DNA of 64,000 nt, taken from positions 14,178-78,177 of the forward strand of contig JAXMNT010000038.1 in NCBI GenBank assembly GCA_034670305.1, written 5' to 3'. The translations under genes and the position numbers were made by a program. Numbering within the stretch: the stretch's first letter is position 1; each line of letters opens with the position of its first letter. Positions 36,332-54,870 of the stretch are shown here, piece after piece. The notes beneath the pieces are model-generated. The model ran no database searches. It was not told the origin of the DNA and saw only the letters and a program-made list of their open reading frames with translations. The DNA is from Deltaproteobacteria bacterium (lineage in GTDB: Bacteria > Myxococcota_A > Polyangia > Polyangiales > Houyiibacteriaceae).

Positions 36332-36871
36332 CTAGACCAGTTCGAAGTCGCCGGTGAGGGAGTCGGCGATCTGTCCACCGTCGAGCAGCCACGGGAGCTT
36401 CGGGGCATGGCGGCGCGGCACCCGAACGACCACGGGTCGCTCGTAGGTTCGAAATACGAAGTCCCACAGCGGCGAGGTCACGCCGTGGTTCATGAAAGGC
36501 CGCGTGAAGTGGTGGTGAAAATGGTGGCGGCGGGCCCAGCGGCCGTAGAACGTGCGCGGCGCGTGCACATGCAGGTCCCGGTGGACGAACTCGTACGTGC
36601 GCCAGCCGGCGGCAAACCCCCCGACGAAGCAGCCTGCGGCCCCCATGCCGAAAATGGGGGCCGTGATCAGAAACAGCGCGCTCAGCACGGGCACCGCGAG
36701 CAGCAACTTCTTGGTCCACGGGGTGAAGTAGTCGGGTTTGGAGTGATGGCGCAGGTGCTCGCGTGAGCCTTCCGTGCGCCCTTTGGGTTTGTGGCCTCCC
36801 CAGGCGTGGAGCGCGTACTCCGCGAACGTCCAGAAGAAGAACCCGACCAGCGCTGCGACGACGTATTCCAT
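36332..36871 (-). CDS. Fatty acid hydroxylase / sterol desaturase family protein
   Basis: His boxes HAWGGH, HLRHH, HRDLH, HHFHHH; NHGVTSPLWDFVF. Confidence 0.85.
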   Translation of the reverse strand: MEYVVAALVGFFFWTFAEYALHAWGGHKPKGRTEGSREHLRHHSKPDYFTPWTKKLLLAVPVLSALFLITAPIFGMGAAGCFVGGFAAGWRTYEFVHRDLHVHAPRTFYGRWARRHHFHHHFTRPFMNHGVTSPLWDFVFRTYERPVVVRVPRRHAPKLPWLLDGGQIADSLTGDFELV

Positions 36872-36874
36872 AAT

Positions 36875-36889
36875 GTGAACCCCGTTCAC
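36875..36889. promoter_or_regulatory. Palindromic operator candidate at the hydroxylase start
   Basis: GTGAAC-CCC-GTTCAC, 3 nt from the ATG. Confidence 0.5.
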
Positions 36890-38563: not shown

Positions 38564-39595
38564 CTAAGTGCTGCGGGCTTCGCGGTCGGAGACGAGCGCG
38601 ACTTCGAGTTCTCGGCCGAGCGCGCCGAGGCCATCGTCGAGTGAGTCGACCTTCGCGTGTCCTGCGACTTCGGCGGCGAGCCGTGCCGCCACGCCTTCGA
38701 GTCGGCTGACGAGCGCTTCCATGCGGGCTTCGGCGACCTGGGTCTCCCCGTCGAGTTCGTCGCGGCGGGCCACCGCTTCCGTTCCGACACCTTCGATGCG
38801 CTCGCGGGACCGGCTGATTTCGAGGGCGTGGGCCCGAACCTTCTCTGCGAGTTCACCGAGTTCGGCGGCCGCTGCCACCACCGGATCGTAGGCCGGTCCG
38901 AGCCGACGGCCCTCCCGCGCAACGGCCCCCACCGCACGACGCGCGCGCCGGCTCCAGCCCGCCCACCGGTCGCGTCTGCGTCGCCGGAACCACACCAGCA
39001 GCCCGAATGTCGCAACGATTGCGCCGAGGACGACGGTCACGATCGTGGACATGGACTCGGTGCGGGGCGAAGACGTGAGGGCGGGAGACGGGAGCAGGGC
39101 GGGCGTCGCGACGGTGGGGACCGTGCGCACGAGGATCTCGATGCGGCCGCGCAGCTGGCGCACGGCCTCGCTGCGGGTTTGCAAGTTGGCGGCGGCGATG
39201 CGGGCGATGGCGAACGAGACCCGCGCATCGTGCGAGGGGAGCCGCACCACGTACGAGTGGGTGTCGACGTTTTCGCTCAGCAACGTGCTGCCTTCCGGAA
39301 GGAGCACGTACGGGCCATCGGCTTCGAAGCGCAGGTCCGGGGTTTGGCGGTGGAACGCATCCAGGGTGCTTCCGGCCGCGGGAATGGACACGGTGCCGAC
39401 CACCTCGATCGTCCGCTCGTCGTCCAAGAGATTGGAGACATCCAGGACGCTTCCGTCGAGCGGCAACTCGAGCCGCTCGGTGACGACGGTCGCCGGTTCG
39501 TCCGCCAGCGCGGGCGCGGCACCGAGCGCGAGTGCGCACACGGCGAGCGTGAGGCGCCATGCGCCTTGCCACCTCGATGCAGTCGACGGGCTCAT
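38564..39595 (-). CDS. Hypothetical exported single-pass membrane protein with coiled-coil C-terminus
   Basis: Signal peptide, transmembrane helix followed by RRRRR; overlaps the stop of the VWA gene. Confidence 0.7.
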   Translation of the reverse strand: MSPSTASRWQGAWRLTLAVCALALGAAPALADEPATVVTERLELPLDGSVLDVSNLLDDERTIEVVGTVSIPAAGSTLDAFHRQTPDLRFEADGPYVLLPEGSTLLSENVDTHSYVVRLPSHDARVSFAIARIAAANLQTRSEAVRQLRGRIEILVRTVPTVATPALLPSPALTSSPRTESMSTIVTVVLGAIVATFGLLVWFRRRRRDRWAGWSRRARRAVGAVAREGRRLGPAYDPVVAAAAELGELAEKVRAHALEISRSRERIEGVGTEAVARRDELDGETQVAEARMEALVSRLEGVAARLAAEVAGHAKVDSLDDGLGALGRELEVALVSDREARST

Positions 39596-41478
39596 CGCAT
39601 CCGCCGATCACCGAAGTAGTTCATCGCCATGACCAGGGTGTCGCGGGAGCCGCTGTCCCAGCTGCCCCAGGCGCCCTGGACGACCTGCTCGTAGCGGGCC
39701 AGCAGCGCTGCGTCCTGACGCAAGCCGTCGTCGCGCCACAGCTGCGCCGCCGCCTGCAGGAGTTCGCGGCGCTCGGTCAATGCGCGTCGGGCACTCGCCG
39801 CGTCGCCGCGCCCGAGGGCATCGGCGGCGCCTTGCAGTGCCGAGCCAGCCTGGAATGCGAGCACGGTGCGTTTCACCGGTCGGACCACCGACGCTTGGGC
39901 GCGGGCCGCGTCGGTGGTGCGCTCGGCGGTGACTTCGCGGACGACGTGGCCGTTCCGGTTTCGGATCAAGTCTTTGAAGTCGAGTGTGACCGTGGCGATG
40001 TCGCTCGTGCGGGTTCCGGCCGGAACCTCCAGCTCCATCAGGATGACGTGCTGGTCGCCGCGGCGGAACGTCGGCAAGTGGATGCGGAGACCGCGCTCTT
40101 CTTCGTTCTGGCGGTCGCGGGCGACGCCGAGTTGGCGGGCGATGCGCTGGTCGACGGCGACTTCGGTCGCGCGGACGGCGGCGTGTTCGGTCTCACTCAG
40201 CAAACGCGATCCGTACACCTTCGTGGCACGCACGCCTTCGGCGAGTTCGACCCGAACCCGCAGACCCTGCGCCACCGCTTGGGCGCGCGCCTCGAGTTCG
40301 TCTTCGAGGATGTCGGCCATGTCTTCGGGCCGGCGCACGAAGTGGTAGCTGCCGCTTCCTTCGCGGGCGATGGTGATCATCGTCTGCTCGTCGAAGTCGG
40401 TGCCGAGCCCGATGGCGGTCGTGAGCACACCCGCTCGGTCGAACGTGCGTCGGGCGACGGCGCCGAGCATCTGCACGTTGGTCTGACCGACGGTGACCCG
40501 ACCATCGGAGACCAGGAAGGTCATCCCGACGGTGCCGCCGGCGCGCGCCCGGGGGGCGTGTTGGTCGACGAGCTCGAGCGCCGCGCCGATGTTGGTGCCG
40601 CCGCCCGGAACGAGCCGGTTGATCGCGGCATGCGCCGAGCGGCGGTTGCCCACGCGGGCCGGGCGCACATCGAGCGTGGCTTCGTCCGAGTAGGTGACCA
40701 GACCGAACGTGTCCTGGGGCTGAAGCGCGTCCACGATGCTGTGGGCGGCGCGGATGGCGTGCTGCCACTTGTGGCCGTCTTGCATCGAACCGCTTCGATC
40801 GAGCACCAGACGCACATCCATCTGCGGGCGGCGCGGCATCTCTCCCTGTCGTCCGATGAGCGCGACCTGAAGATGGACTCGCTCGGTGCCGGTGGTCAGC
40901 TGAGCGCGTTCGAGCTCCGCGAACATGTCGACGCCCTGGCTGGCGGGCACCGGGTAGGGCAGCGGTTCGCGGTCGCCGAACGCTTCGATGCGGACGAGCT
41001 CGCCGCCGACCATCACGCCGCGGTCCAGCAGGTCGTCGAGTCGGGCGCGCACGCCGTTGCCGCCGACGAAGTTCGAGGCGAGCACCCCGTTCTGAGGAAG
41101 CGGCGCGGCCGGCATCGGCTGGCCGGGGGCCATCAGACGACGGGGCCTGGGGCGCGAGGCCTCCTGACGCGCGGTCCCAGTGCTGGCTGCCATGGCGGAC
41201 GCGCGGCCCACGTAGCCGGCGGCACCACCGCGCGCGCCCTGGGAGCCCGCAACGACGTCGTCGTACTCCGCCGGCGCCTCTTCCGCGACGCCGGTCTCCA
41301 TCTCGGGTTCGGCCAGGTCCGCCAGTTGTTCGGTCCCCACGGTGGCGGGCTCCTGGGCTCTGGGAAGTTCTTGAACCTCTTGAATGGTGGCCGCCGCCGG
41401 CTCGGCATCGGCGTTGAAGCCGCAACCGAGCGCCAGTACCAGACTCCAGATCCCCACGCGCGTCGTATGTTTGTTCAT
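39592..41478 (-). CDS. von Willebrand factor A domain lipoprotein
   Basis: Lipobox ALGC; MIDAS LDRSGSM; GGTNIG; SDG. Confidence 0.88.
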   Translation of the reverse strand: MNKHTTRVGIWSLVLALGCGFNADAEPAAATIQEVQELPRAQEPATVGTEQLADLAEPEMETGVAEEAPAEYDDVVAGSQGARGGAAGYVGRASAMAASTGTARQEASRPRPRRLMAPGQPMPAAPLPQNGVLASNFVGGNGVRARLDDLLDRGVMVGGELVRIEAFGDREPLPYPVPASQGVDMFAELERAQLTTGTERVHLQVALIGRQGEMPRRPQMDVRLVLDRSGSMQDGHKWQHAIRAAHSIVDALQPQDTFGLVTYSDEATLDVRPARVGNRRSAHAAINRLVPGGGTNIGAALELVDQHAPRARAGGTVGMTFLVSDGRVTVGQTNVQMLGAVARRTFDRAGVLTTAIGLGTDFDEQTMITIAREGSGSYHFVRRPEDMADILEDELEARAQAVAQGLRVRVELAEGVRATKVYGSRLLSETEHAAVRATEVAVDQRIARQLGVARDRQNEEERGLRIHLPTFRRGDQHVILMELEVPAGTRTSDIATVTLDFKDLIRNRNGHVVREVTAERTTDAARAQASVVRPVKRTVLAFQAGSALQGAADALGRGDAASARRALTERRELLQAAAQLWRDDGLRQDAALLARYEQVVQGAWGSWDSGSRDTLVMAMNYFGDRRMR

Positions 41479-41672
41479 GTTTCGTCCTCAGGGCGGACCC
41501 GTCCATTTGGGCTGAGCCGCCTCCCGGGCGTCTCGAGCCGCATCCACCGTCCGCAGAACGAGACTCACGACGGGCGGCCAGTCTTTGAAAAAAAAGACCG
41601 GGCCTTCCTGCTTGCCGAGACGGGTGGCGCGCGCCGCATGCAAGCGGCGGCGGCCTGCAGTAGGATTCGCCC

Positions 41673-43442
41673 GTGAACAACGTCCAGGCGATGCAGCGGA
41701 TCGGTGAGACGGTCGATCGCTACAAGATCGAGTCCGTGCTCGGCTCCGGCGGCTTTGGCGCGGTCTTCCGCGCGCGGCACGTCATGATGGATCGCCAGGT
41801 CGCGCTGAAGCTCCTGCACCCCTCGGCCGCGGCGAGCGACGAGATCCGCGAGCGCTTCATTCGCGAGGCCCGCACGCTCGGCAAGCTCGGTCACCCGCAC
41901 ATCATCGAGATCTACGACTGCGGCGTGACGAATGGCGGCGAGCTCTTTCTCGCCATGCAGCTGCTCGAGGGCGAAGACCTCTCCGAACGGGCCGAGAAGC
42001 ATCGTCTGACCGTGGATGCGGTCGTGGACGTGACGGTTCAGGTACTCGATGCACTCGAAGCCGCGCACGCGGCTGGCATCGTCCACCGGGATCTGAAACC
42101 GGCGAACGTCTACCTCGCGACCCAGCGCGGCCAAGAGGTCGTCAAACTTCTCGACTTCGGCATCAGCAAACTCGACGCGGGCGAGGGCACCGGCCTGACC
42201 CACACGGGGGTCGTGATGGGGACGCCCCACTACATGGCGCCCGAACTCTTCAGCGGTATGAAGGGCGCGGACCACCGCGCGGACATCTACGCCGTCGGTG
42301 TGATGCTCTACGAACTCTTCTCGGGCGGGCCGCCGCACGACGCAGCGAGTTACGAGCAGCTGGTGGTGAAGATCGCGACCACCGATCCCACCCCGCTTCG
42401 GCAGAAGTTGCCCTCGTTGCCGGAGGCGCTCCAGCAAGTGGTCGAGCAGGCGCTCCGCAGGGATCCCGACCAGCGGTTCTCGAGCGCGAAAGAGATGCGG
42501 ACCGCACTCGAGCGCGCCCGCGGTGCGTCGACCGTGCCTCTGCAGGTCGACCCATCGCTCGCGTTTGCGGCGACCGGATACTCGTCCCCCCTATCGTCGG
42601 CACCGACCGGTGCCGCCAGTGGGCCATCGGGCCCGCTCACGCCCCCACCGGCCCGCGCGCCGGTGGACATGATGGGCGGGGTCGCACCCCAGTCGACGCC
42701 GATGAGCTCAGCGTCCTTGCCTGGTCATGTGCCTGCACCCGCCATGGGGGGCAGCCCTGGCTTCGGGGGCATGCCCCAAGCGATTCCTCCGTCCTCCGAC
42801 GGCGGCGACATGACGAAGCTCGTCTGGGGCGCGACCGGCGTCCTGACGCTCCTCGTCGCCATGGGCATCGGGCTCGCGGTCTTGTCGAGCCAGGACGACG
42901 ATTCCGAGACCGCCGCTGGACCGAACTCCGGCTTCAGCGTCGATGTCAGCCCGCACACTGCGGCGCCCCACCAACCCCCCGTCGTCGACAGCATCGGTGC
43001 GAGGGGACCCATGCAGCCAGCCCAGGTGGTCGCACCGCAGCAGGTCGCGCCGCAGCAGGTCGCGCCCCAGGTCGCGGCGCCACCCGTCCAGCCCTCGATC
43101 GTGCCTCAGGCCACGAACACGCCCAGTGTTCCGGCCGCGACCGGGGGCCGCATTCGGATGCACGAACCCAACTTCGTCAGCAGCACCCCGCCGAGCAGCA
43201 GCTCCATCTTCGCGCGCTTCGAGAGTCAGCGCGCGGCACTGCAACGTTGCCGCCGCGACGTGCCGAACGTCGCGCGGGTGAGCTTGATGTTCAACAGCGG
43301 GCGGGTCTCGCTGGCCACGGCGCACGGCTCGACCGACGAGGAGGTCGGTCGTTGCGTGGCGAGCATCATGCGCGAAGCAGGACCGATCGACAGCCAAGGC
43401 TCGGGCATCATTCAGCTCGTGTTCGACCTGCCGCCAGGCTGA
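41673..43442 (+). CDS. Membrane Ser/Thr protein kinase
   Basis: LGSGGFG, VALK, HRDLKPAN, DFG, GTPHYMAPE; one transmembrane helix. Confidence 0.95.
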   Translation: MNNVQAMQRIGETVDRYKIESVLGSGGFGAVFRARHVMMDRQVALKLLHPSAAASDEIRERFIREARTLGKLGHPHIIEIYDCGVTNGGELFLAMQLLEGEDLSERAEKHRLTVDAVVDVTVQVLDALEAAHAAGIVHRDLKPANVYLATQRGQEVVKLLDFGISKLDAGEGTGLTHTGVVMGTPHYMAPELFSGMKGADHRADIYAVGVMLYELFSGGPPHDAASYEQLVVKIATTDPTPLRQKLPSLPEALQQVVEQALRRDPDQRFSSAKEMRTALERARGASTVPLQVDPSLAFAATGYSSPLSSAPTGAASGPSGPLTPPPARAPVDMMGGVAPQSTPMSSASLPGHVPAPAMGGSPGFGGMPQAIPPSSDGGDMTKLVWGATGVLTLLVAMGIGLAVLSSQDDDSETAAGPNSGFSVDVSPHTAAPHQPPVVDSIGARGPMQPAQVVAPQQVAPQQVAPQVAAPPVQPSIVPQATNTPSVPAATGGRIRMHEPNFVSSTPPSSSSIFARFESQRAALQRCRRDVPNVARVSLMFNSGRVSLATAHGSTDEEVGRCVASIMREAGPIDSQGSGIIQLVFDLPPG

Positions 43443-43467
43443 ACTTCAACGCCCGAGCGCGCTCGGA

Positions 43468-44454
43468 TCAGTCGTCGGCGTTCTGCGAGCGCGCGTACGC
43501 CAGGCCCACGTAAGGCCCCATCGGGCTCGCGAAGTTGCCGCCCACGGTGGTCAGGCGGCGACCGTCTCCGAAGATGGCGTGGAACGCGTGGAAGGTGTCC
43601 TGGTAGTCGTCGTGCACCATCTCGAGCGACGTGAAGTCGAACCGGCTGATCTGACCCTGCTCGCCCACCGCATGGATGACGTCGTCGCTGCCCATCCACA
43701 CCCCGTTGAGTCCGGGCAGCGCCGCGGGCTGCTCGCCCATCCATTCGGTTCCGTCGTACCGGTACACCCAGCCGTTGCCCCGTCCGCCGACCGCTGCGAT
43801 CCGGTTCGGCCCGGTGCCCCAGATGCTGATGAGATCCACCGAGGCGCCGATGTTCACTTCGGACCACGCCGCGCCGTCGTAGTGAAGCACCACCCCCCGT
43901 TGCCCGACCACCCAGACATCGTCGGGTCCGCTCCCCCACACCTTGAAGAACGCGAACACGTTGGCGCGTTCGAGCTCTGGCAGCACGACCGGCGTCCACG
44001 CCGAGCCGTCGTAGTGCGTCACCGTAGGCACGCCGCCGGCGAACGGGTTGCCGCCCACCGCGTAGACGTCGTCGGGTGCGGCGCCCCAGACGCCCCACAG
44101 CACCTCGGAGGTGCCCGAGTCCTGCCGGGTCCAGGACGTTCCGTCGTGGTGGAGGATCGTGCCGCCTTCCCCCACGACGAAGACATCGTCTGAACCGAAC
44201 CCGAACACCCAGTTCAAGAGCGGCAGATCGCTGAGTCCCGTGTCGAGGGGGGACCATCCGCCGGCGTTCCGATGGAAGATCGCGCCGGTCGAGGGCCGAC
44301 CTTGGCCGCCGACCGCATAGAGATCGTCCGATCCGGGCCCCCAGACGCTCAGAAGCCATTGGGAGGAGGGGTCGAAGGCGGGCGCCCAAGGTTCGCTGGC
44401 GGGGCCGGGACATCCGAGAAGACAGGTGAGGCACACCGACAAGAGAAGGCGCAT
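43468..44454 (-). CDS. Beta-propeller repeat lipoprotein
   Basis: Lipobox LLGC; repeats of VWG...DDVYAVG...HYDGxxW. Confidence 0.8.
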   Translation of the reverse strand: MRLLLSVCLTCLLGCPGPASEPWAPAFDPSSQWLLSVWGPGSDDLYAVGGQGRPSTGAIFHRNAGGWSPLDTGLSDLPLLNWVFGFGSDDVFVVGEGGTILHHDGTSWTRQDSGTSEVLWGVWGAAPDDVYAVGGNPFAGGVPTVTHYDGSAWTPVVLPELERANVFAFFKVWGSGPDDVWVVGQRGVVLHYDGAAWSEVNIGASVDLISIWGTGPNRIAAVGGRGNGWVYRYDGTEWMGEQPAALPGLNGVWMGSDDVIHAVGEQGQISRFDFTSLEMVHDDYQDTFHAFHAIFGDGRRLTTVGGNFASPMGPYVGLAYARSQNADD

Positions 44455-44523
44455 CCCCACATCCTACACACTCCCAAAGTGGGTTGGGCCGGTCGCACGC
44501 GTTCGGATGCCCGAGCACTCGAA

Positions 44524-44550
44524 CTGGAACTTGTTCTGGAACTTGTTCTG
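44524..44550. promoter_or_regulatory. Tandem 12-bp repeat of near-palindromic boxes upstream of the sterol cluster
   Basis: TGGAACTTGTTCTG occurs twice (44525-44538, 44537-44550). Confidence 0.4.
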
Positions 44551-44789
44551 ATGCGGCGCCGGACAAGCACTCTCATAACGCCCTGGAAACAAACAGCTTT
44601 TCGGCGTACTGCGGACCGTGGATCGGCTGACCTGGATCGGGCGACGGTTCGCTTCCCCGTGGCCACCGCTCGCCGGATTCCTCGCATCCGCGTGGGGTTC
44701 ACTTGCTAACTGGACCCGGTCGACCGCTGCGCGCCGTTCGGATCCGGGGGGATCCGCCGACCGCCAGCAACCGCGGCCGACCCGACATC

Positions 44790-47700
44790 ATGACGCACAC
44801 AACCCACCCTTCGATCGCCAACAGCTACGACGTCGTCGTCGTGGGCGCGGGCCCTGCTGGGGCTGCCGCCTCCGCCGGATTCGCCCGGCGCGGCGCGCGG
44901 GTGCTTCTTCTCGAAGCCAACCCCAAAGCATCGACCCGGCTCGCTGGTGAGTGGATCCACCCAACCGGGGCCGACGTGCTCGCGGGCTTCGGCCTGACCC
45001 CGCATGAAGCGACCGCGTCGCACACCCCGAGCCATGGGTTCGTGGTGTTCCCGGACGACGAGTCCGATCCGATCGTGCTTCCTTACGCCGACGGCGCGGT
45101 CGGGTTCTCGTGCGAGCACCACGATCTGGTGGAGTCGCTTCGGACCCAGGCCCACGCGCTGAGCGGCGTCACCTACCTCGAGCGGGCGCGCGTCACCGAG
45201 ATCTCGGGCGCCCGCGTCCAGTTCGCCTACGAAGGTCAGACCCGTGAGGTCCTGGCCGACCGCATCGTGGGCGCAGACGGACGCTCATCCATCGTGCGCA
45301 AGAGCCTGGGCGGTCCGACCGAAGCCGAGGTGATCTCGCACATGGCCGGCGTCGAACTCAACGACGTCGAAGTTCCGTTCGAAGGGTTTGGCCACGTGCT
45401 TCTCGGCGGACCCGGCCCGGTGCTGCTCTACCGCATCGCGCCTGGTCGCGTGCGCGCGTGTCTCGACATCGAAGTCGGTGCGCCCGGTGCCAGACGCGAT
45501 GCGAGTTACCTGTGGGAAGCGTTCGCGCCCCGCTTTCCGGCGGCGCTCCGACCCGCGCTCCGCAAAGCGCTCCGATCGCAGCGGCTCACCTGGGCATGCA
45601 ACCGGTTCTTGCCGCGTGCGTTCTACGGCGAGGGACGCGCCGCGCTCGTTGGAGACGCGGTCGGCTTCTACCACCCGCTCACCGCGAGCGGCATCAGCAT
45701 TGGGCTTCGCGATGCCGAAGCGCTCGTCCGCTCGAACGACGTGGCCAGCTACCAGTCGGAGCGCGAAGCCGCGTCCTATGTGCCGGAGCTGCTCGCGAAC
45801 GCGCTCTACCAGGTGTTCACCCGCGAAGACGCCAGTGCAGCGTCGATCCGAGCGGCCGTGTACGACGTCTGGCGCGCCAGCCCGTCGGAGCGTCAGCGCA
45901 CGATGCGGATCCTCTCCGGTTCCGAGATCCGCACCGGTCAGTTCGGCAGCGCGTTCGTACGCGTCGCCCTTCGAGCGCTTCGTTCTCAGGCGGCCGACCA
46001 GGGCGTGGCCCGTTTCGCGACCGAGCTCGGCCGCTTCCTGGAGTTCGCCCAGTGGCCTGGCGCGACGGTGGTGCCCGCAGCGATTCGCCGACGCGTCCGC
46101 CCGACCGGCACCGCGCTGCAGCCGCTCCGCGGTCTCGGCGTGAAGCCGACGCTTCCCGAGCTCCCCGAGGTGTCCAGCGCACAGACCTCCGTGACGGTCG
46201 ATGTCGACGCGTTGCTCGCGAAGGTTGCCGACGACGTGTCCCAGGCGTCCGTGATCGCGCGGCTCGCCGAACGTCTCGAGACCCACAGCCGACAGGGCGA
46301 CCTGGACGCCGTGGTGCTCGACTCCGAGTCGCTGCTTGCGATGTCCGCCGAGACGCCCGCCGACCGGCTGCACCGCGCGCGCGCACTCGCCACCACCCAG
46401 CGCCGGTACCCGGGCGCACTGGCGCGCCACATCGGGCCCGAGCTTCGCCGGATCGCCGGCCGCGTGCGCGCCGACGAAGCCGTGACGAGCCACCCGCGCG
46501 ATGTGGCCCTCGCGCTCGAGACCCTCTTTCACTGCGGTGTGCCCGTGTACGACGCGCTTTGTCGCCGGTTCATCCGCGCGCTTGGCGCCGCGCAGACCGA
46601 AGACGGAAGCTGGGGCGGTGCGGTGACCACCGCGATCGTGGCGCGCGCCCTGCTCGTGTCCGAAGCTCCGCTTTGGGCCGCCATCGAGCGGGGGCTCTCG
46701 AGCCTCGATGCATCGATCACGCTCGGGGCGGAAGCCGCCGAAGCACTGACCCTCTACCGAGCGCGCCGCGCCATGCGCCTCACCGCCCGGACCGCCCGCG
46801 CCTCCCAGGACGCTCAGCCGGCCGACCATGCGTACTGTTCCGAGGCACTGCTCGCGGTCTCGCGCAGCTTCGCGCGTCCAATCGAGATGCTGCCCGGCGA
46901 TCTTCGGAGCGCCGTCACTTGTGGCTACTTGCTCTGCCGCATCGCCGACACGGTCGAAGACCACCACGGGTTCACCAGGGACGAACGCGACGAGCGCTAC
47001 GGAACCTTCCTGTCCGCCATCGAAGGCCCGGCCGACAGCGCGCCGGTCGCGCGGTTCGAGGAACTGTTCGCAGACGTCGAAGGCGAGCCGGCCGAGATCG
47101 ACCTCTGCCGCAACCTCTCGTCGGTGTTGCGGGTGTTCCGCGCGCTGCCTGAGGCGATGCAGACCAAGACGATTCGCTGGGTCGCCGAGATGACCCGCGG
47201 CATGCAGATCTACTCGCACCGTCCGCCCGGCAGCGACGACTACACCGCGCTGCACACGGTCGAGGACCTCGAGCGCTACTGCTACTTCGTGGCGGGCACC
47301 GTGGGCCACATGCTCACCGACCTCTTCGTCGAAGAGATCGGCGAAGTCGGCACCAGCGTGGAGCACGCGCTGCGCACCGAAGCCGAAGCGTTTGGTGTTG
47401 GCCTGCAGTTCGTGAACATCCTCAAGGACGTGACCGACGACCGCGAGCGACTCGTCTCGTTCATTCCGCGGACGTCCTGTTTCAAAGAGGGGCTGCAACT
47501 CTCGCAGCTCACCGATCCAGCGCGCCGGTCCGAAGCCCACCAGGTCGTCGCGCCGCTCTTCGACATCGCCCAGGGCCGCCTCGACCGCGCCCTCAACTAC
47601 GTGCTGGCCATCCCGGCCGAACACACCGCCGTGCGGCTCTTCTGTCTGCTGCCGCTCTGGATGGCAGTTCGCACGCTGGTCCATGCGCGCGGCAACGACG

Positions 47701-47867
47701 CGATGTTCGTGACCGGTGCGCCAGTGAAGATCGCCCGCGCCGAAGTCGAACAGCTGATCGCCGACTGCATGGCGCACGTGGGTCAGGACGACCTTCTTCG
47801 CGTTCGTTACGACGCGCTCTGGCGCGCCCCACTTTCCGCCCCGCACACCCAGAGCGCCGTCCACTGA
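44790..47867 (+). CDS. Squalene epoxidase - squalene synthase fusion protein
   Basis: N-terminal: VVGAGPAG, RLAGEWIHPTG, GADG, GDAVGFYHPLTASG, LANALYQVF. C-terminal: YLLCRIADTVED, YCYFVAGTVG, GLQFVNILKD, FCLLPLWMAVRTL. One uninterrupted ORF. Confidence 0.88.
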   Translation: MTHTTHPSIANSYDVVVVGAGPAGAAASAGFARRGARVLLLEANPKASTRLAGEWIHPTGADVLAGFGLTPHEATASHTPSHGFVVFPDDESDPIVLPYADGAVGFSCEHHDLVESLRTQAHALSGVTYLERARVTEISGARVQFAYEGQTREVLADRIVGADGRSSIVRKSLGGPTEAEVISHMAGVELNDVEVPFEGFGHVLLGGPGPVLLYRIAPGRVRACLDIEVGAPGARRDASYLWEAFAPRFPAALRPALRKALRSQRLTWACNRFLPRAFYGEGRAALVGDAVGFYHPLTASGISIGLRDAEALVRSNDVASYQSEREAASYVPELLANALYQVFTREDASAASIRAAVYDVWRASPSERQRTMRILSGSEIRTGQFGSAFVRVALRALRSQAADQGVARFATELGRFLEFAQWPGATVVPAAIRRRVRPTGTALQPLRGLGVKPTLPELPEVSSAQTSVTVDVDALLAKVADDVSQASVIARLAERLETHSRQGDLDAVVLDSESLLAMSAETPADRLHRARALATTQRRYPGALARHIGPELRRIAGRVRADEAVTSHPRDVALALETLFHCGVPVYDALCRRFIRALGAAQTEDGSWGGAVTTAIVARALLVSEAPLWAAIERGLSSLDASITLGAEAAEALTLYRARRAMRLTARTARASQDAQPADHAYCSEALLAVSRSFARPIEMLPGDLRSAVTCGYLLCRIADTVEDHHGFTRDERDERYGTFLSAIEGPADSAPVARFEELFADVEGEPAEIDLCRNLSSVLRVFRALPEAMQTKTIRWVAEMTRGMQIYSHRPPGSDDYTALHTVEDLERYCYFVAGTVGHMLTDLFVEEIGEVGTSVEHALRTEAEAFGVGLQFVNILKDVTDDRERLVSFIPRTSCFKEGLQLSQLTDPARRSEAHQVVAPLFDIAQGRLDRALNYVLAIPAEHTAVRLFCLLPLWMAVRTLVHARGNDAMFVTGAPVKIARAEVEQLIADCMAHVGQDDLLRVRYDALWRAPLSAPHTQSAVH

Positions 47868-47904
47868 AAGATTTCGGCTCGTTTCGCGAGCCAGTGAGAA
47901 CACC

Positions 47905-49008
47905 ATGAAACACGCAAGCGATGCTCCCATTCTCGTGACCGGCGGCGCCGGTCATGTCGGCGCCAACCTCGTTCACCGCCTCGTCGAAGACGGCCACCGT
48001 GTGCGTGTGTTGCTGCGCGCCGGCGAGAACAACGAATCCGTGCAAGGGCTCGACGTCGAGTCCGCGATCGGCGACCTGCGCGATCCGACTTCGCTGCGCG
48101 AAGCGGTCAAGGGATGCCGCCGGGTCTTTCACGTCGCCTCGATGGTCAGCACCATCGACGGTGACGCCGACCACCGCCGCGCGATCTACGAGACCAACGT
48201 CGTCGGCACCCGTCATCTGCTCCGCGCCGCGCGCGAGCACTCGGTCGAGAAGTTCGTCCTGACGAGCTCCTTCTCTGCGGTCGGCTACGACCTCGACGAG
48301 ACCGACCAGCCCGCCCACGAAGGCATGGGGTTCTACCCGTTCCACCGCGCGATGCCCTACGAGCGCACCAAGGTGCTCCAGGAGCACGAAGTGCTCAAAG
48401 CCGTCGTCGAAGGTCTCGATGCGTGCATCGTCACGAGCTGCGCAGTCATCGGCGCGCACGACTACCTGCCGAGCCGCATGGGCCGCACGATGGCCAAGTT
48501 CGCCAACCGGAAGCTGAACGCCTACGTGCCGGGCGGCTTCGAGTTCGTCGCCGCGCGCGACATCGTGGCGGGCCACCTGCTCGGCATGGAACGCGGCCGC
48601 GTCGGACAGAAGTACGTCATCGCGAGCCAGTTCCTCACGCTCGACGACATCTGGGACATGCTCGAAGAGATCACCGGCCAGCCGCGCCCGCGCTTCAAGG
48701 TGCCGAGCGCCGCGCTCTTGCCGATCGCCGAGCTCAGCAGCTGGATGATGTACCGCATCAGCCCGCGCTTCCCCCAGCTCCTCACACCGGGCGCGATCCG
48801 GCGGCTGCAGCTCCGCCGCCACGCGGACACGAGCAAAGCCCGCCGCGAGCTCGGCTTCGTGCCGACCCCGATGGAGGAAGCGTTTGCCGAGGCCTACGCG
48901 TTCCACTTCTCGAGGGGCGCGATCACCCACCCCGAGGCCAAGAAGCCCGTTGCGCCGAAACCCTCGCGCACCGCGCCCATCCACTCCGACATCCGAATCC
49001 ACGCCTGA
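47905..49008 (+). CDS. NAD(P)-dependent extended SDR (3beta-HSD/HpnA-like; candidate SdmB-type sterol C-4 decarboxylase/reductase)
   Basis: TGGAGHVG, YERTK (YxxxK); next to a Rieske gene inside the sterol cluster. Confidence 0.8.
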   Translation: MKHASDAPILVTGGAGHVGANLVHRLVEDGHRVRVLLRAGENNESVQGLDVESAIGDLRDPTSLREAVKGCRRVFHVASMVSTIDGDADHRRAIYETNVVGTRHLLRAAREHSVEKFVLTSSFSAVGYDLDETDQPAHEGMGFYPFHRAMPYERTKVLQEHEVLKAVVEGLDACIVTSCAVIGAHDYLPSRMGRTMAKFANRKLNAYVPGGFEFVAARDIVAGHLLGMERGRVGQKYVIASQFLTLDDIWDMLEEITGQPRPRFKVPSAALLPIAELSSWMMYRISPRFPQLLTPGAIRRLQLRRHADTSKARRELGFVPTPMEEAFAEAYAFHFSRGAITHPEAKKPVAPKPSRTAPIHSDIRIHA

Positions 49009-49011
49009 GCC

Positions 49012-50145
49012 ATGAGCAGAGTTTACGTTCAGCAAGATGCCCCGCCGCCTTCGTTCGAAGAGGCGAAGAACACCCGTCAGAAGGTGCGCGCCGCCGGCAT
49101 GCACCCCGACTACTGGTACCCCGCGGCCTGGGCCAAAGATCTCAAGCCCGGCGAAGTGAAGGAAGTCGTCTTCTGGAAGCGCAGCATCGCGCTCTTCCGG
49201 GGCGACGACGGGCAGGTCCGCGCCATCGACAACCGGTGCGCGCACCGGCAGCTCAAGCTCACCACCGGCCACGTCGAGGGCTGCAACCTCGTCTGCCCGT
49301 ACCACGGTTGGGCGTACGACGGGCAGGGCCGCGTCGTGGACATTCCGCACTCGCTCTTCGGTCGCAAGTTCCCGAAGTTCCAGGTGCCCTCGATCCCCGT
49401 GAAGGTGAAGCACGGCCTCATCTTCATCTTCCCCGGCGACCCGGAGAAGTCCGAGGACGTGGCGCCCCCGGACATCCCTGAGCTCGAAGGCAAGAACCCC
49501 TGGCCGACCGTCTGCGTGGACTCCACCTGGAAGGCCCACCACTCGATGATCATGGACAACGTGAGCGACTTCACGCACGCGTTTCTCCACCGTCGCTTCA
49601 AGCCCTTCGACGACGCCAAGCTCATTCACTACGAGACCATCGGCGACACCGTCGAACTCGAGTACGAGACCAAGGTCGGACGCGGACCCATCAGTGGACT
49701 CTTCGTCGACCGAAGCCGCGTCGACTCCGACTCGATGAAGCTCGGGTACGAGTACCCGTACCAGCGCAGCAACACGGACAACCAGATCAAACACTGGTGC
49801 TTCGTGCGGCCGATCGACGAACGCACGACGGCGAGCTTCTTCATCTTCTACTTCCGCTCGTTCCGCGTGCCATTCACGAAGGTCCCGCTCCCGTTCAACG
49901 TGATGCGCGGGCTGTTGGCGATCGGCAAGAAGCTCACGGTTCAGCCGCTCCTCGAAGAAGACGGAGTCGCGGTCGAGTGCGAGCAGGACGGGTACGACCG
50001 CCACTGGGACGCACCGCTCGCGGAGCTCAACCCGGTCGTGAAGTCCTTTCAGGAACTGACCATTCGCAAGTGGGAGGAGTACCTGGCCAGCCAGACCCTC
50101 ACCACCATCAGCAAGAAGTCGAAAGACGAAGAGGCGCGGGTATGA
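49012..50145 (+). CDS. Rieske non-heme iron oxygenase (candidate SdmA-type sterol C-4 methyl oxidase)
   Basis: CAHR...CPYHGW Rieske ligands; DNVSDFTHAFLH mononuclear Fe motif. Confidence 0.82.
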   Translation: MSRVYVQQDAPPPSFEEAKNTRQKVRAAGMHPDYWYPAAWAKDLKPGEVKEVVFWKRSIALFRGDDGQVRAIDNRCAHRQLKLTTGHVEGCNLVCPYHGWAYDGQGRVVDIPHSLFGRKFPKFQVPSIPVKVKHGLIFIFPGDPEKSEDVAPPDIPELEGKNPWPTVCVDSTWKAHHSMIMDNVSDFTHAFLHRRFKPFDDAKLIHYETIGDTVELEYETKVGRGPISGLFVDRSRVDSDSMKLGYEYPYQRSNTDNQIKHWCFVRPIDERTTASFFIFYFRSFRVPFTKVPLPFNVMRGLLAIGKKLTVQPLLEEDGVAVECEQDGYDRHWDAPLAELNPVVKSFQELTIRKWEEYLASQTLTTISKKSKDEEARV

Positions 50146-51443
50146 CCACCACGACGGACGAACGAAGCTCCCGGATCCCGGGGTTCTACCGCCTCGACGT
50201 CGAAGAGCGGCACGACGAGCTGCGGGAACGTTTCGGGCTCAGCACCGAAGATCTCGACATCCTCAAAGACGGCAGCCGGCTCGGGGTCGACCGCGCGGAC
50301 AAGATGGTCGAGAACTGCGTGGGCGTCTTCGGATTGCCGATCGGTCTTGGGCTGAACTTCCACATCAACGGACGCGACTTCACGATCCCGATGGTGGTCG
50401 AAGAGCCGTCCGTGGTGGCGGCCGTGAGCAACATGGCGCGCACCGTTCGCAAGTCCGGAGGGTTCCGCGCCGAGGCCGACGAATCGTTGATGATCGGCCA
50501 GGTCCAGATCCTCGACGTCGAAGACGCGGACGTCGCGGTGGCGGCGCTCGAACAGAACAAGCAGCGCTTGCTCGACGAAGCCAACGCCGTGCATCCCAAC
50601 ATGAAGCGCCGCGGCGGCGGAGCGCTCGACATCGAGGTGCGCCGTTTCGACGCGCCGTACCCGATGCTGGTGCTGCACCTCATCGTGGACTGCGGCGAAG
50701 CCATGGGTGCCAACGCGATCAACGCGATGGCCGAAGGGGTCGCACCGCTCGTCGAGCGCCTCACCGGCGGCCGCGTGAACCTGCGGATCCTCTCGAACCT
50801 CGCCGACCGCCGCTGCGCGCGGGCGTGGTGCTCGATCCCCGAGCTCCTTCTCGCAGGCAACGGGTTCACCGGTGCCGAAGTCGCCGAGGGCATCGTCGAG
50901 GCCTACCAGTTCGCGGCGGTCGATCCCTACCGCGCCGCCACCCACAACAAGGGTGTGATGAACGGCGTGGACGCGGTCGCGATCGCCACGGGCAACGACT
51001 GGCGCGGCGTCGAAGCGGGCGCCCACGCGTTCGCAGCGCGGGATGGCAAGTACACCTCGCTCACCAAGTGGTGGCGCGCGGACGGCCAGCTCCATGGCTT
51101 CATCGAGTTGCCCATGGCGGTCGGTGTGGTCGGTGGCAGCACCAACGTGCACCCGACCCTCCGGGTCATGCGCAAGATCCTCAGCGTGGAGAGCGCCGCG
51201 GAACTCGGCATGGTCATGGCCACCGTCGGTCTCGCTCAGAACATGGGCGCGCTGCGCGCACTGGCGACCGAAGGCATTCAGCGCGGACACATGAGTCTGC
51301 ACGCGCGCTCGGTGGCACTCGCCGCTGGTGCCGAAGGCAGGCTCGTCGACGAGATCGCTCGCGAGCTCATCGCGGCCGAGTCGATCAAACTCGACACCGC
51401 ACGCGACCTCATCGCCGCCAAGCTGCGCCGCAAGGTCGGCTGA
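50142..51443 (+). CDS. mvaA: HMG-CoA reductase, class II
   Basis: MVENCVG, EEPSVVAA, EAMGANAIN, ILSNL, RAATHNKGVMNG, GIQRGHMSLH; ATGA overlap with the Rieske gene. Confidence 0.93.
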   Translation: MTTTTDERSSRIPGFYRLDVEERHDELRERFGLSTEDLDILKDGSRLGVDRADKMVENCVGVFGLPIGLGLNFHINGRDFTIPMVVEEPSVVAAVSNMARTVRKSGGFRAEADESLMIGQVQILDVEDADVAVAALEQNKQRLLDEANAVHPNMKRRGGGALDIEVRRFDAPYPMLVLHLIVDCGEAMGANAINAMAEGVAPLVERLTGGRVNLRILSNLADRRCARAWCSIPELLLAGNGFTGAEVAEGIVEAYQFAAVDPYRAATHNKGVMNGVDAVAIATGNDWRGVEAGAHAFAARDGKYTSLTKWWRADGQLHGFIELPMAVGVVGGSTNVHPTLRVMRKILSVESAAELGMVMATVGLAQNMGALRALATEGIQRGHMSLHARSVALAAGAEGRLVDEIARELIAAESIKLDTARDLIAAKLRRKVG

Positions 51444-51490
51444 GCTGCGGCCGGGCCGCGCGCCCGGCCGTCCCCTTCCGGAGAACGTCC

Positions 51491-53575
51491 ATGGCCTCGT
51501 CCCTCGATCTCGAACTCAGCCTCGACCGTGGGGTGCGCCGGCTCGTCGATCTCGCCGACACGCACCACGCAAGCCACGATGGCGACGACGGCACCGACCG
51601 GGTGCTGCGTCACTTCGAGGGCGAAGACGTCTGGAACAGCATGTTGCCCGCGCAATACGCGATGGCGATGCACGTGATGGGGGAGGAACTCTCCGAGGAG
51701 CGCAAGCGGCGCATCGTGCGGCAGCTCGAGCACGAGCAACTTCCGGGCGGACTCTGGGGGCTGCACCGGTTCGGGGAGCCTTCGCTCTTCATGACCGCGC
51801 TCTCTTACGTCGCCGCGCGTTGCGTCGGCGTGCCCGCAGACGACCCCCGTTTGGCAGCGGCTCGGACGATGTTCGCGAGCGAAGACGTTCGCGCCATTCC
51901 GAGTTGGGGCAAGGCGTGGCTCTCGCTGATGAACGTCTACGGCTGGGAGGGCGTCAACGCCGTGCCGCCGGAAGCATGGCTCCTCCCAGAGCGCCTGCCG
52001 CTCCATCCGGCGAACTACTACTGCCACACGCGGCTCATCTACATGGGCATGGCGAGCGTGTTCGGCCAGAAGCTCCGTGCGCCCCGCAGCGCGCTGGTCG
52101 ATGCCCTTCGCGCCGAGCTCTACCCGAACCGAGACTACGCCTCGATCGACTTCCGGAGCGCGCGCCACCTGCTCCGCGAAGACGATCTCTGGGCACCGCC
52201 GACCAAGACGCTCAAGGCGATGTACGAGGCGGTCAACTTGTTCGAACGCGTGCAGTCGAAGATCCCCGGCCTCGGCCTGCGGGCGCGCTGTCTCGCCGAG
52301 CTTCGGGAGCGCATGAAGTTCGAGCTGCGCAGCTCGGACCACACCTGTCTCTCGCCGGTGAACGGGTTGCTCTTCATGCTCACCCTCTGGGCCCACGATC
52401 CGAAGGACCCGGATCTCGCCGAACAGCGACGCCGTTTCGAGGGCTGGATCTGGGAGGACGAAGACGAAGGACTCCGCATCTGCGGCGCGCGGAGCGCGAC
52501 GTGGGACACGAGCTTCGCGATCCAGTCGCTCGTGGCTTCGCGTCCATCCGTGTCGCCGTCGACCCGAACCCGTCTCGACGCCGTCGTCGAGGAGTCGGTG
52601 GCGTGGCTTCGGTCTCAGCAGATCACCGCGCCCCAACGCCCGCTCGACGAGTACAAACGCGCGTACCGAGTGGACCCAACCGGCGGCTTCTGCTTCGCGG
52701 GCATCTGGCACGGCTGGCCAGTGAGTGACTGCACCGCCGAAGCGCTCGAAGCGTTCCTCGAAGCGGACGCGATCACCCCGCACGATCCTCAGGTGCTGAC
52801 CGCAGGCATTCGGTTCCTGCTCCAGTGTCAGAACCCCGACGGCGGTTTCGGAAGCTACGAAGCCCGCAAGTCGATGGAGATGGAGTGGATGAACCCCGCC
52901 GAGATGTTCGGCGACTCCATGACCGAACGGTCGTACGTCGAGTGCACCGCGAGCAACCTCATCGCGCTCGTGCGGGTGCGTGCACGGCTCCAGCAAACGG
53001 GCGGCGAGGGCCAGCTGCTTCGCCGCATGGATCAGGCGATCCGCCAAGCCGAACGGCTGCTTCGCAAACGTCAGAACGAAGACGGTTCCTGGGACGGCGC
53101 CTGGGGCGTCGCGTTTCTCTACGGCACGCTCTTCGGCATCCGCGGGCTGCGCGCCGCCGGCGCCGACGCGTCCGACCCGGCGATCGCTGCGGCCACCGAG
53201 TTCATTCGAGGCCACCAGCGCGCGGACGGCGCCTGGGGCGAACACTGGCGCACCTGTCTGACCGACCGGTACGAGCCGTTCGACCACGGGCACATCGTGC
53301 AGACCGCGTGGGCGGTCCTGGCCCTCGCGAACGCGTCCGAAGCGCCGAGCCCCGAAGACGAAGCGGCGATCCTGCGCGGCTGCGCCTGGCTCGCCTCTCA
53401 ACAGCAAGCCGATGGCGACTGGCCCGAGCAGGAGTTTTCGGGCGTGTTCTTCCGCACCGCACTCATCGACTACCGGGCCTACCGTCGGGTGTTCCCGGTC
53501 TGGGCTCTGAGCTATGGTGCCGCGCTTCACAAGCGACTCGGCGCCCATCGGCCCGCCGCCCAACCCGTCGCCTGA
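51491..53575 (+). CDS. osc: Oxidosqualene cyclase (2,3-oxidosqualene sterol cyclase)
   Basis: HGWPVSDCTAE (DCTAE, not the DXDD of squalene-hopene cyclase), YYCHTRLIY, QNPDGGFGSYE, SYVECT, QW repeats, GAWGVAFLYGT. Confidence 0.93.
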   Translation: MASSLDLELSLDRGVRRLVDLADTHHASHDGDDGTDRVLRHFEGEDVWNSMLPAQYAMAMHVMGEELSEERKRRIVRQLEHEQLPGGLWGLHRFGEPSLFMTALSYVAARCVGVPADDPRLAAARTMFASEDVRAIPSWGKAWLSLMNVYGWEGVNAVPPEAWLLPERLPLHPANYYCHTRLIYMGMASVFGQKLRAPRSALVDALRAELYPNRDYASIDFRSARHLLREDDLWAPPTKTLKAMYEAVNLFERVQSKIPGLGLRARCLAELRERMKFELRSSDHTCLSPVNGLLFMLTLWAHDPKDPDLAEQRRRFEGWIWEDEDEGLRICGARSATWDTSFAIQSLVASRPSVSPSTRTRLDAVVEESVAWLRSQQITAPQRPLDEYKRAYRVDPTGGFCFAGIWHGWPVSDCTAEALEAFLEADAITPHDPQVLTAGIRFLLQCQNPDGGFGSYEARKSMEMEWMNPAEMFGDSMTERSYVECTASNLIALVRVRARLQQTGGEGQLLRRMDQAIRQAERLLRKRQNEDGSWDGAWGVAFLYGTLFGIRGLRAAGADASDPAIAAATEFIRGHQRADGAWGEHWRTCLTDRYEPFDHGHIVQTAWAVLALANASEAPSPEDEAAILRGCAWLASQQQADGDWPEQEFSGVFFRTALIDYRAYRRVFPVWALSYGAALHKRLGAHRPAAQPVA

Positions 53576-53634
53576 GTCTCCATCTCCACCCGCGCCACCG
53601 GCCGGGTTCAACCGCCAGCCAGAGAGTACGCACC

Positions 53635-54624
53635 ATGTCCGGAGTCAGCCGCGAGTCCTTCCAATCGACCGTCGACGAGTACCAGGGTCTTCACGACGAG
53701 AGCGGAAGCGACGTCGAGCAGCGCAAGGCCCAGTACACGAAGCTCGTGAACCAGTACTACGACCTGGCCACGGACTTCTACGAGTTCGGTTGGGGCGAGC
53801 ACTTCCACTTCGCGCCGCGATGGAAGAAAGAGAAGTTCCTCGCGAGCCTCGAGCGTCACGAGCGGCACCTCGCGCGCAAGCTCCGGCTCTACCCGGGCAT
53901 GGAAGTCCTCGATGTCGGCTGCGGCGTCGGTGGACCCGCGCGCTACATCGCGAAGCACACCGGCGCCAAGATCGTCGGCGTGAACAACAACGCCTACCAG
54001 ATCAGCCGCGGCGAGAAGCACACCCAGAAGGCCAAGCTCAACCACCTGGTCAGCTTCCAGAAGGCGGACTTCATGGCGCTCCCGGCCGAGGACGGACGTT
54101 TCGACGCCGTCTACACGATCGAAGCGAGCTGCCACGCGCCCGACCGCGTGAAGCTCTTCCAGGAGTTGCGGCGGGTGATGAAGCCGGGCGCGCTCTTCGG
54201 TGGTTACGAGTGGTGTCTCACCGACCAGTACGACGAGTCGAACCCCGCGCACGTGAAGATCAAGAAGGACATCGAGATCGGCAATGGTCTCCCCGACCTC
54301 TCGCACACCTCGGTGATCGACCAGTCGCTCGAGGCGGCCGGGTTCGAAGTCCTCGAGACCCAAGACCTCGCGCCGACCGGCGACCCGGAGACCCCGTGGT
54401 ACCTGGCGCTCACCGGCGGCGATCTCTCGCTGGCGAGTTTCCCGCGCACGCCGATCGGGCGAACCGTGACCAACTTCGCGACCAAGCTCATGGAGAAGGT
54501 CGGCATCGCGCCGAAGGGCACCCAGGCCGTCAGCAGCTTCCTCAACCAGGGCGCCGACGCGCTCGTGGCGGGCGGCGAGACCGGCACCTTCACGCCCATG
54601 TACTTCTTCGTCGCCCGCGCCTAG
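53635..54624 (+). CDS. smt: Sterol C-24 methyltransferase (SMT/ERG6-like)
   Basis: YYDLATDFYEFGWGEHFHFA (region I), LDVGCGVGGPAR, IEASCHAP, KPGxxFGGYEW, IEIGNGLP, FTPMYFF. Confidence 0.93.
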   Translation: MSGVSRESFQSTVDEYQGLHDESGSDVEQRKAQYTKLVNQYYDLATDFYEFGWGEHFHFAPRWKKEKFLASLERHERHLARKLRLYPGMEVLDVGCGVGGPARYIAKHTGAKIVGVNNNAYQISRGEKHTQKAKLNHLVSFQKADFMALPAEDGRFDAVYTIEASCHAPDRVKLFQELRRVMKPGALFGGYEWCLTDQYDESNPAHVKIKKDIEIGNGLPDLSHTSVIDQSLEAAGFEVLETQDLAPTGDPETPWYLALTGGDLSLASFPRTPIGRTVTNFATKLMEKVGIAPKGTQAVSSFLNQGADALVAGGETGTFTPMYFFVARA

Positions 54625-54870
54625 CGGTCGGAACTGGCCGGGTCGCCGGCCTCCTACACGGGGCCTTCTACACTGGCCTCACACTGGCTCGGCCGCCTAT
54701 GGTGGCCATGGCCGTGCCTCGATCCGATGGGCTGACGGTTCGGTGGGGCTGGGGCCACAAACCCACATGGAGTGACGCTCCTCACTGCCGCTCGACGCGT
54801 AGGTGAAGGGGAGGGCGGGATCCGCTATGTTTCGCGCGACCTTCCTTCCCGGATCCTTCCTGGAGACCCC

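Follow-up and report, generated by a model that had tools for sequence, protein, structure and literature searches.

A bacterial gene that joins squalene epoxidase and squalene synthase through a third, probably cyclase-derived module

Can one bacterial protein make squalene and epoxidize it? Squalene is extremely hydrophobic, and in eukaryotes its synthesis and its epoxidation are carried out by separate enzymes anchored in the endoplasmic reticulum (ER), the epoxidase being rate-limiting. The question is raised by a gene at positions 44790-47867 of a 64,000-nucleotide stretch (the window) of contig JAXMNT010000038.1, from the metagenome-assembled genome of a deltaproteobacterium of the Polyangiales. 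A preliminary description of the window, made from its letters alone, proposed that this gene encodes squalene epoxidase (SE) and squalene synthase (SQS) in a single chain. We find that the fusion is real, that the chain holds a third module between the two enzymes, and that the protein probably converts farnesyl diphosphate (FPP) into oxidosqualene.

Two sterol enzymes in one open reading frame

An open reading frame (ORF) runs over 44703..47867 of the + strand in the ORF listing of the window and opens at a TTG. Its first ATG, at 44790, gives a protein of 1025 amino acids on translation, and this start agrees with the homologues, whose shared beginning in the alignment of relatives is the M..YDVVVVGAGPAG consensus. 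The window has a GC content of 66-70%, so that long ORFs are frequent in many frames, and an antisense ORF of 881 codons overlaps the gene; the Pfam domain scores nevertheless lie well above anything expected by chance and identify the + strand frame as the real one. The features of the gene are as follows.

44790..47867, + strand: whole gene, SE, putative cyclase relic and SQS in one chain; 1025 codons plus stop (ORF, Pfam, AlphaFold2 (AF2))
44790..46109, + strand: SE module, residues 1-440, with FAD domain, substrate domain and C-terminal helical membrane-association subdomain
44844..44861, + strand: GxGxxG dinucleotide-binding motif (G19, G21, G24), from the translation and the family alignment
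46110..46202, + strand: connecting stretch, residues 441-471, extended and free of regular secondary structure (DSSP on the AF2 model), with block predicted local distance difference test scores (pLDDT) of 75-89
46203..46784, + strand: helical module, residues 472-665, putative relic of the C-terminal third of an oxidosqualene cyclase (AF2, Foldseek, hhalign), with a QW-like 'QTEDGSWGG'
46815..47825, + strand: SQS module, a class I head-to-head prenyl synthase, residues 676-1012 (Pfam, NCBIfam and PDB matches)
46947..46961, + strand: first Asp-rich motif, DTVED (D720-D724), aligned with DTLED of human SQS
47427..47441, + strand: second Asp-rich motif, DVTDD (D880-D884), aligned with DYLED of human SQS

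The single chain is confirmed. One contig covers the span 44600-48100 in each of the four DNA runs that contain the stretch, with no differences and no gaps; these runs share one study, may be the source of the assembly and are thus not independent. Conservation was counted in a MAFFT alignment of the query and its 120 best database relatives (121 sequences). All 120 relatives carry both enzymes, and the residues of both are kept in one chain in 121 of 121 members, which come from many assemblies. This recurrence of the architecture in 120 other database proteins is the independent support for the fusion and the stronger argument against an artefact. The AF2 model of the whole chain has a mean pLDDT of 89.9 and a predicted template modelling score (pTM) of 0.66, and residues 667-672, just ahead of the SQS module, are its sole low-confidence internal stretch.

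The preliminary description was thus right about the uninterrupted frame of about 1025 codons, about the N-terminal epoxidase and C-terminal synthase, and about the four motifs that it quoted (DTVED, YCYFVAGTVG, LQFVNILKD and FCLLP), all of which are found in the translation. Two of the checks that it proposed, a search for the domain architecture elsewhere and sequence support across the linker, came out as given above. Its picture of the architecture holds for the two enzymes and fails for the two-module layout, as a folded third module of about 190 residues between them had been overlooked.

In the N-terminal module, Pfam places FAD_binding_3 at residues 13-313 (2.3e-23, 83.4 bits, cut-off 22) and SE at residues 160-408 (2.6e-30, 105.9 bits, cut-off 20.1). 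Its best match among solved structures by phmmer is human SQLE (6c6n, 2.8e-28). Foldseek superposes the module on 6c6n_A with an E-value of 8.9e-21, a template modelling score of 0.84 on the target and 24% identity (456 columns for 450 residues). As the superposition extends over 456 columns, the C-terminal helical membrane-association domain is included. G19 and G21 of the dinucleotide-binding motif are each glycine in all but one of the 121 family members and G24 in every one, and E42 and the GD motif (G288, D289) are kept in 120-121 of them.

Two active-site positions differ from the human enzyme: Y195 and Q168 of human SQLE align to F84 and H57 of the fusion protein, the human numbering having been verified with F166 and I197, which are named in the text of PMC6327030. 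According to the same text, the Y195F change costs human SQLE more than 90% of its activity. However, when 117 stand-alone bacterial SE homologues are aligned with the query, the H57 equivalent is histidine in 118 of 118 sequences and the F84 equivalent is phenylalanine in 111; the stand-alone proteins compared include cyanobacterial and Gemmataceae ones. All 121 fused members have the F/H pair too. We therefore rejected the idea that phenylalanine in place of human Y195 disables the epoxidase, as F/H is normal in stand-alone bacterial homologues. By sequence, the pair appears to be a trait of a bacterial SE clade and not a defect, and the protein, which lacks the Tyr195-Gln168 pair required for activity in the eukaryotic SQLE subfamily, belongs with that clade. 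Bacterial epoxidases must arrange this part of the active site otherwise than the human enzyme, which Y195F cripples.

The C-terminal module matches Pfam SQS_PSY at residues 689-983 (2.2e-42, 146 bits, cut-off 26). The top NCBIfam model is TIGR01559 squal_synth with 111.2 bits, followed by HpnD (54.4), HpnC (44.5) and CrtB (about 43). Solved structures rank in the same way: SQS 7wgh (7.9e-16) and human SQS 3vj8 (9.5e-15) score about 55-60 bits, against about 35 bits and E-values of about 1e-8 for dehydrosqualene or phytoene synthases. D720, E723 and D724 of the first Asp-rich motif and D880 and D884 of the second are kept in 121 of 121 members, and the SRSF flap, Y830, Q873, N876 and F951-C952 in 120-121. 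The SQS-type motifs SRSF, YCxxVAGxVG and FC(x)(x)P align with human SQS, F951-C952 falling on the human 'FCAIP' region, which we take to serve the second half-reaction of squalene synthase. The module is accordingly predicted from its motifs and matches to be a one-step squalene synthase that reduces presqualene diphosphate with NADPH. No transmembrane-like segment was found at its C-terminus, where no 19-residue stretch reaches a Kyte-Doolittle value of 1.6. The split synthase lacks such a segment as well, and we rejected the possibility that the fusion makes up for a transmembrane anchor that the synthase has lost.

Compared with 38 full-length relatives, the protein averages 59% identity over residues 1-440 and 65% over residues 679-1025, but 29-35% in between. 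This pattern, with both enzymes conserved above the middle, is the one expected with purifying selection on both. The 38 relatives are 45-73% identical to the query in their alignment; 37 of them were picked because their best local alignment covers 95-100% of the query (97% for P0015) at 41-73% identity.

The middle module and the history of the family

According to how long their middle is, the 120 best relatives can be sorted into a short class of 13 (23-94 residues), a medium class of 31 (232-293) and a long class of 76 (316-527). The query is a medium form, the 32nd of its class. Its middle module has nine or ten helices in the whole-chain AF2 model and reaches a pLDDT of 94.8 and a pTM of 0.89 when folded alone. 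The middle of the protein has no Pfam match, cyclase domains included, and its sequence contains no DCT and so lacks the catalytic acid of the DCTAE motif. A partial SQHop_cyclase_C match does occur at the same place in six of six long forms scanned (about 1130-1200 amino acids; E 2.2e-8 to 1.6e-3), three of them above the gathering score, and in neither of two short forms.

Profile comparison with hhalign points to the same origin. The long-form middle profile matches residues 440-673 of the 694-residue oxidosqualene cyclase (OSC) encoded in the window (E 1.1e-13), while the medium-form profile, with the query as its first row, has a weak match to this OSC (E 2e-5, probability 77%). Two SE-OSC fusions from the same phylum match more strongly in their cyclase part, with E-values of 1.8e-13 and 3.4e-12 (probability 98%) for the medium-form profile and of 2.6e-18 and 1.1e-17 for the long-form one. 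In all three cyclases compared, the matched stretch begins downstream of DCTAE. When the isolated module is searched with Foldseek, human OSC (1w6j) comes first, weakly (E 7.3e-3, root-mean-square deviation 2.3 Å, 146 columns), followed by other alpha/alpha toroids, and nothing reaches E <= 1e-3. A phmmer search of 1.84 billion representatives returned two proteins, both fused family members, and hence no stand-alone version; the cyclase link needs profile comparison, a single-sequence search being insufficient. Judged from these profiles and folds, the middle module is a fast-evolving, folded and non-catalytic remnant of the C-terminal third of an OSC. We rejected a working cyclase, as the module has only about 190 residues, no DCTAE or DxDD acid and no complete two-barrel fold. 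A predicted complex of the middle module with the OSC of the window scored 0.00, which is evidence neither way.

The preliminary description took the fusion for a rarity, and this view has to be given up: it is the common form in Myxococcota, including cultured sterol producers, and one such protein is already in the literature as 'SE'. The nearest named relative belongs to a Polyangiaceae metagenome-assembled genome (62% identity), and all 14 of the best relatives that have an organism name are Myxococcota, one being labelled 'Deltaproteobacteria bacterium'. Databases name the family variously as 'squalene/phytoene synthase family protein', 'FAD-dependent oxidoreductase', 'Squalene monooxygenase', 'Squalene synthase' or 'hypothetical'. 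The statement that no characterised example was known agrees with the literature searched, in which an SE-SQS fusion is neither described nor assayed, although figures and supplements outside that search may show the architecture. No natural SE-SQS fusion is described in the searched text of PMC8237579, PMC7306690, PMC4919349 or PMC10202945, of which the synteny figure of PMC7306690 and the supplementary information of PMC8237579 may show it, nor in that of bioRxiv 10.1101/2024.11.01.621555, PMC10152446, PMC12146001 or PMC10070321, their figures and supplements lying outside the search. The window gene is thus a further member of a family that is catalogued in databases but unstudied as a fusion.

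A sample of 401 genomes of the phylum shows how varied the arrangement is. At least six genomes have both halves in one open frame (the window genome G000 and G235, G325, G350, G375 and G275), and in at least eight genomes of one sister genus SE is directly followed by SQS as separate open frames. Two candidates were scored per genome, so that these tallies are lower bounds, and many of the 107 matches in the sample are weak and fall on other flavin monooxygenases. In five of five split loci checked, SE precedes SQS in a different reading frame, for one of them also by ORF listing; this is the order to be expected had two neighbouring genes fused. A quick maximum-likelihood tree was built from the SQS module (127 rows, LG+G4, midpoint root, with the Shimodaira-Hasegawa-like approximate likelihood ratio test (SH-aLRT) as the only support). 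On it the four architecture states need 12 changes, compared with a minimum of 3 and a mean of 45.8 after shuffling. The split forms are nested among the fused ones, and the tree cannot tell gain from loss.

One stand-alone SQS, L007 (G059:C310, 1495-2559, - strand), comes from a genome of the same family as that of the window and has no SE within 1.5 kb upstream. It is sister to the C-terminal module of the fused medium-form P0031 (SH-aLRT 100, short branches) and may represent a recent fission or an assembly break.

Other genomes join the epoxidase to the cyclase. G284 encodes an SE-OSC fusion (L027:878-4318, 1146 amino acids) and a free SQS (352 amino acids), clustered with SdmA/B-like genes and a P450. 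In G350 (L026, contig C3), a first gene at 925-4458 encodes a 1177-residue protein in which a full cyclase follows a degenerate SE-like N-terminus; this N-terminus is 38% identical to the SE of the window and has no Pfam SE match at 1e-5. A second gene, 36 bases later (4494-7901), encodes a 1135-residue fusion of SE, relic and SQS. The pair resembles reciprocal decay after duplication.

Gene context, proposed function and alternatives

The fusion gene stands first in a row of sterol genes, and the five that follow lie on its strand, neighbours overlapping or being at most 50 bases apart.

47905..49008, + strand: SdmB-like sterol C-4 demethylation dehydrogenase (NCBIfam NF052578 SdmB 6.1e-91, below cut-off; Pfam Epimerase and 3Beta_HSD)
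49012..50145, + strand: SdmA-like Rieske 4-beta-methylsterol monooxygenase (NCBIfam NF052579 4.7e-119, below cut-off; Pfam Rieske and VanA_C)
50142..51443, + strand: HMG-CoA reductase (Pfam HMG-CoA_red 2.2e-107); putative start ATG 50142, overlapping the SdmA stop
51491..53575, + strand: OSC, 694 amino acids, with a VSDCTAE motif (TIGR03463 osq_cycl 3.5e-194); putative start ATG 51491
53635..54624, + strand: sterol methyltransferase (Pfam Sterol_MT_C 1.3e-24 plus methyltransferase domains); putative start ATG 53635

From this arrangement we infer that the six genes form one operon. A scan of 43300-56500 was uninformative, with no promoter-like site and with 5 terminator-like sites, where shuffled sequence gave 6.5 ± 2.7. 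The genome (7.93 Mb in 105 contigs, metagenome-assembled, 96% complete) has a single PF08491 (SE) match, the fusion, and a single PF13243 (cyclase) match, the OSC of the operon. PF00494 is matched twice, by the fusion and by an HpnD/CrtB-like protein of 349 amino acids on another contig; with two such genes, the HpnC+HpnD route is not possible.

Because one chain carries both squalene epoxidase and squalene synthase, the protein is likely to be an FPP-to-oxidosqualene enzyme. We give a probability of about 0.78 to a three-module enzyme of the sterol pathway that converts FPP into oxidosqualene; we infer both activities, their products, the role of the spacer and the benefit of the fusion. The preliminary description had also proposed a bifunctional enzyme of this kind, and sequence, fold, gene context and genome inventory support that proposal, stripped of its rarity and two-module layout. 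In the proposed mechanism, the synthase module would join two molecules of farnesyl diphosphate on Mg2+ bound at its two Asp-rich motifs and then reduce presqualene diphosphate with NADPH to squalene. The FAD epoxidase module, on the membrane via its C-terminal helices, would use O2 to turn squalene into 2,3-oxidosqualene, which would pass to the separate OSC encoded four genes downstream, SdmA/SdmB and the methyltransferase then modifying the sterol. The cyclase relic may act as a rigid spacer or scaffold. The fusion would fix epoxidase and synthase at 1:1, and tethering could hold the synthase, which has no anchor of its own, at the membrane surface used by the epoxidase, placing the release of squalene there. 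Channelling of squalene within the protein, also suggested in the preliminary description, is pure speculation.

Several observations weigh against this proposal. The TIGR01559 score of the synthase module lies under the equivalog cut-off of 286.75, and the geometry between the domains is predicted with moderate confidence, given the whole-chain pTM of 0.66. F84 and H57 replace the human pair, a weak point as F/H is typical of bacterial homologues. The genome has eight FA_hydroxylase-family genes, and an alternative epoxidase from that superfamily is conceivable. The literature searched holds no activity, transcript or protein data for any family member.

Of the explanations that compete with a bifunctional enzyme, the one with the most in its favour is that a single module is active, the other serving as a disabled anchor or regulator while its step is carried out by another protein, such as a fatty-acid-hydroxylase-type epoxidase. 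The replaced Y195/Q168 pair and the eight FA_hydroxylase genes speak for it, and disabled SE-like domains do exist in the phylum, as at the N-terminus of the G350 cyclase fusion. We consider it improbable all the same: all the cofactor and catalytic motifs considered are retained by 120-121 of 121 members, the F/H pair is normal in stand-alone bacterial homologues, the genome has no other SE-family or SQS-type gene, and Cystobacter fuscus makes cycloartenol with a fused protein as its listed SE. It is quite improbable that the C-terminal module makes presqualene diphosphate, hydroxysqualene, dehydrosqualene or phytoene instead of squalene. PF00494 spans all of these activities, NADPH use is unreadable from sequence and the TIGR01559 score is below the curated cut-off, but that score is twice those of the HpnD, HpnC or CrtB models, the PDB matches and the SQS-type motifs side with squalene synthase, no HpnC+HpnD pair can be assembled from the two PF00494 genes, and the cyclase of the operon needs oxidosqualene and hence squalene.

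The fusion could also be genetic only, with internal initiation or proteolysis giving the epoxidase and the synthase as two proteins. Relatives manage with split adjacent genes, at least 12 changes of architecture on the SQS-domain tree imply that linkage is not strictly required, and the low-confidence stretch 667-672 lies just ahead of the SQS module. On the other hand, the frame is open across the junction in all 121 members and all three length classes, the middle module is folded and not a disordered linker, and nothing in the data points to processing, so that we regard this as highly improbable. An assembly or frameshift artefact joining two genes has a negligible chance; although the genome is a metagenome assembly of 105 contigs whose source may be the very runs that hold the gene, these runs agree without difference, and the 120 other proteins with this architecture include some from complete genomes of cultured strains.

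A bolder extension of the three-module enzyme, which we hold to be unlikely, joins two ideas: that the relic descends from a duplicated SE-OSC fusion by reciprocal decay, and that its half-barrel still handles the C30 chain in a membrane-bound assembly. One copy would have kept its cyclase while its epoxidase degenerated, as in the first gene of G350; in the other the epoxidase would have survived, while the catalytic two-thirds of the cyclase disappeared and the neighbouring squalene synthase was captured. The half-barrel might then hand squalene on from the synthase module to the epoxidase module of its own chain, or else serve as a docking site for the free cyclase. Were both ideas true, one membrane-bound bacterial assembly would turn FPP into sterol, and the ER sterol metabolon of eukaryotes would have a prokaryotic forerunner in the proposed donor lineage of eukaryotic sterol genes.

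Some further genes were noted around the operon and elsewhere in the genome. The second PF00494 gene, L001 (G000:C45, 1354-2403, - strand), scores 189 bits with HpnD and 188 bits with CrtB, both below their cut-offs, and its neighbours are a response regulator and a carboxyltransferase and not carotenoid or hopanoid genes. One of the eight fatty-acid-hydroxylase-family genes (185 amino acids, 36332-36889, - strand) lies 8 kb upstream of the operon. Nearer to it are a Ser/Thr protein kinase (41673-43442, Pkinase 6e-49) and, within 39559-44566, a 705-residue ORF and a divergent 384-residue ORF, both with no family match. Given the sterol methyltransferase that closes the operon, this myxobacterium may make side-chain-methylated sterols, which is relevant to sterane biomarker debates.

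Significance and comparison with known systems

The fusion merits biochemical attention, even though it is no rarity. A natural synthase-epoxidase chain is a ready system for testing whether enzymes that are physically coupled gain in flux or protect their intermediate, and the test is made easier by a phylum that offers long spacers, medium spacers, almost no spacer and split genes. It could also serve as a compact part for engineering the bacterial production of oxidosqualene and triterpenoids. Myxococcota hold every combination of the first three sterol enzymes (SE and SQS fused, SE and OSC fused, both, or none), a shuffling that the cyclase relic would record, and the text of Hoshino & Gaucher 2021 proposes this lineage as the source of eukaryotic sterol genes. 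Published inventories that list the fusion protein as 'SE' alone may under-count or mis-place the squalene synthase step.

The FAD, substrate and C-terminal helical membrane domains of human SQLE (6C6N) superpose on the SE module of the window, and the GxGxxG and GD motifs are shared. The bacterial protein has no N-terminal regulatory region, and its chain runs on into two further modules. Likewise, both Asp-rich motifs, the SRSF flap, the tyrosine of YCxxVAG and the F-C pair align with eukaryote-type SQS (human 3VJ8/1EZF; 7WGH), but the window SQS lacks the C-terminal transmembrane anchor of these enzymes and is attached by its N-terminus to an epoxidase.

Brown et al. 2023 refer in their methods to 'fused SMO/OSC homologs'. 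In SE-OSC fusions such as that of G284, an N-terminal SE is followed by cyclase sequence, as at the start of the window protein. They have a complete cyclase with DCTAE and no synthase, whereas the window protein has the post-DCTAE part only and then SQS; its relic matches their cyclase part better than it matches the OSC of its own operon. The split SE and SQS genes of the sister genus of the same family (for example G017, L013) are two genes in different frames with no cyclase relic, yet they follow the same order and are 43% and 52% identical to the corresponding modules.

The most informative comparison is with Cystobacter fuscus DSM 2262, which makes cycloartenol and for which D187_003106 is listed simply as the 'SE' in Tables 3-4 of Wei et al. 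2016. This protein (EPX59202.1 / WP_002623688.1) is a 1163-residue member of the fusion family, adjoins the OSC of the strain (D187_003104) and has relatives in C. ferrugineus and Sandaracinus amylolyticus. Its module order (SE, cyclase relic, SQS) is that of the window gene, the two can be aligned along the whole chain, and P0092, the cluster representative of its group, is 43% identical to the window protein in the best local alignment. The C. fuscus-type middle module is about 120-140 residues longer and matches Pfam SQHop_cyclase_C (8.9e-8), a match that the window relic lacks. As C. fuscus makes cycloartenol and its listed SE is a fused protein, the comparison supports activity of at least the epoxidase module when fused.

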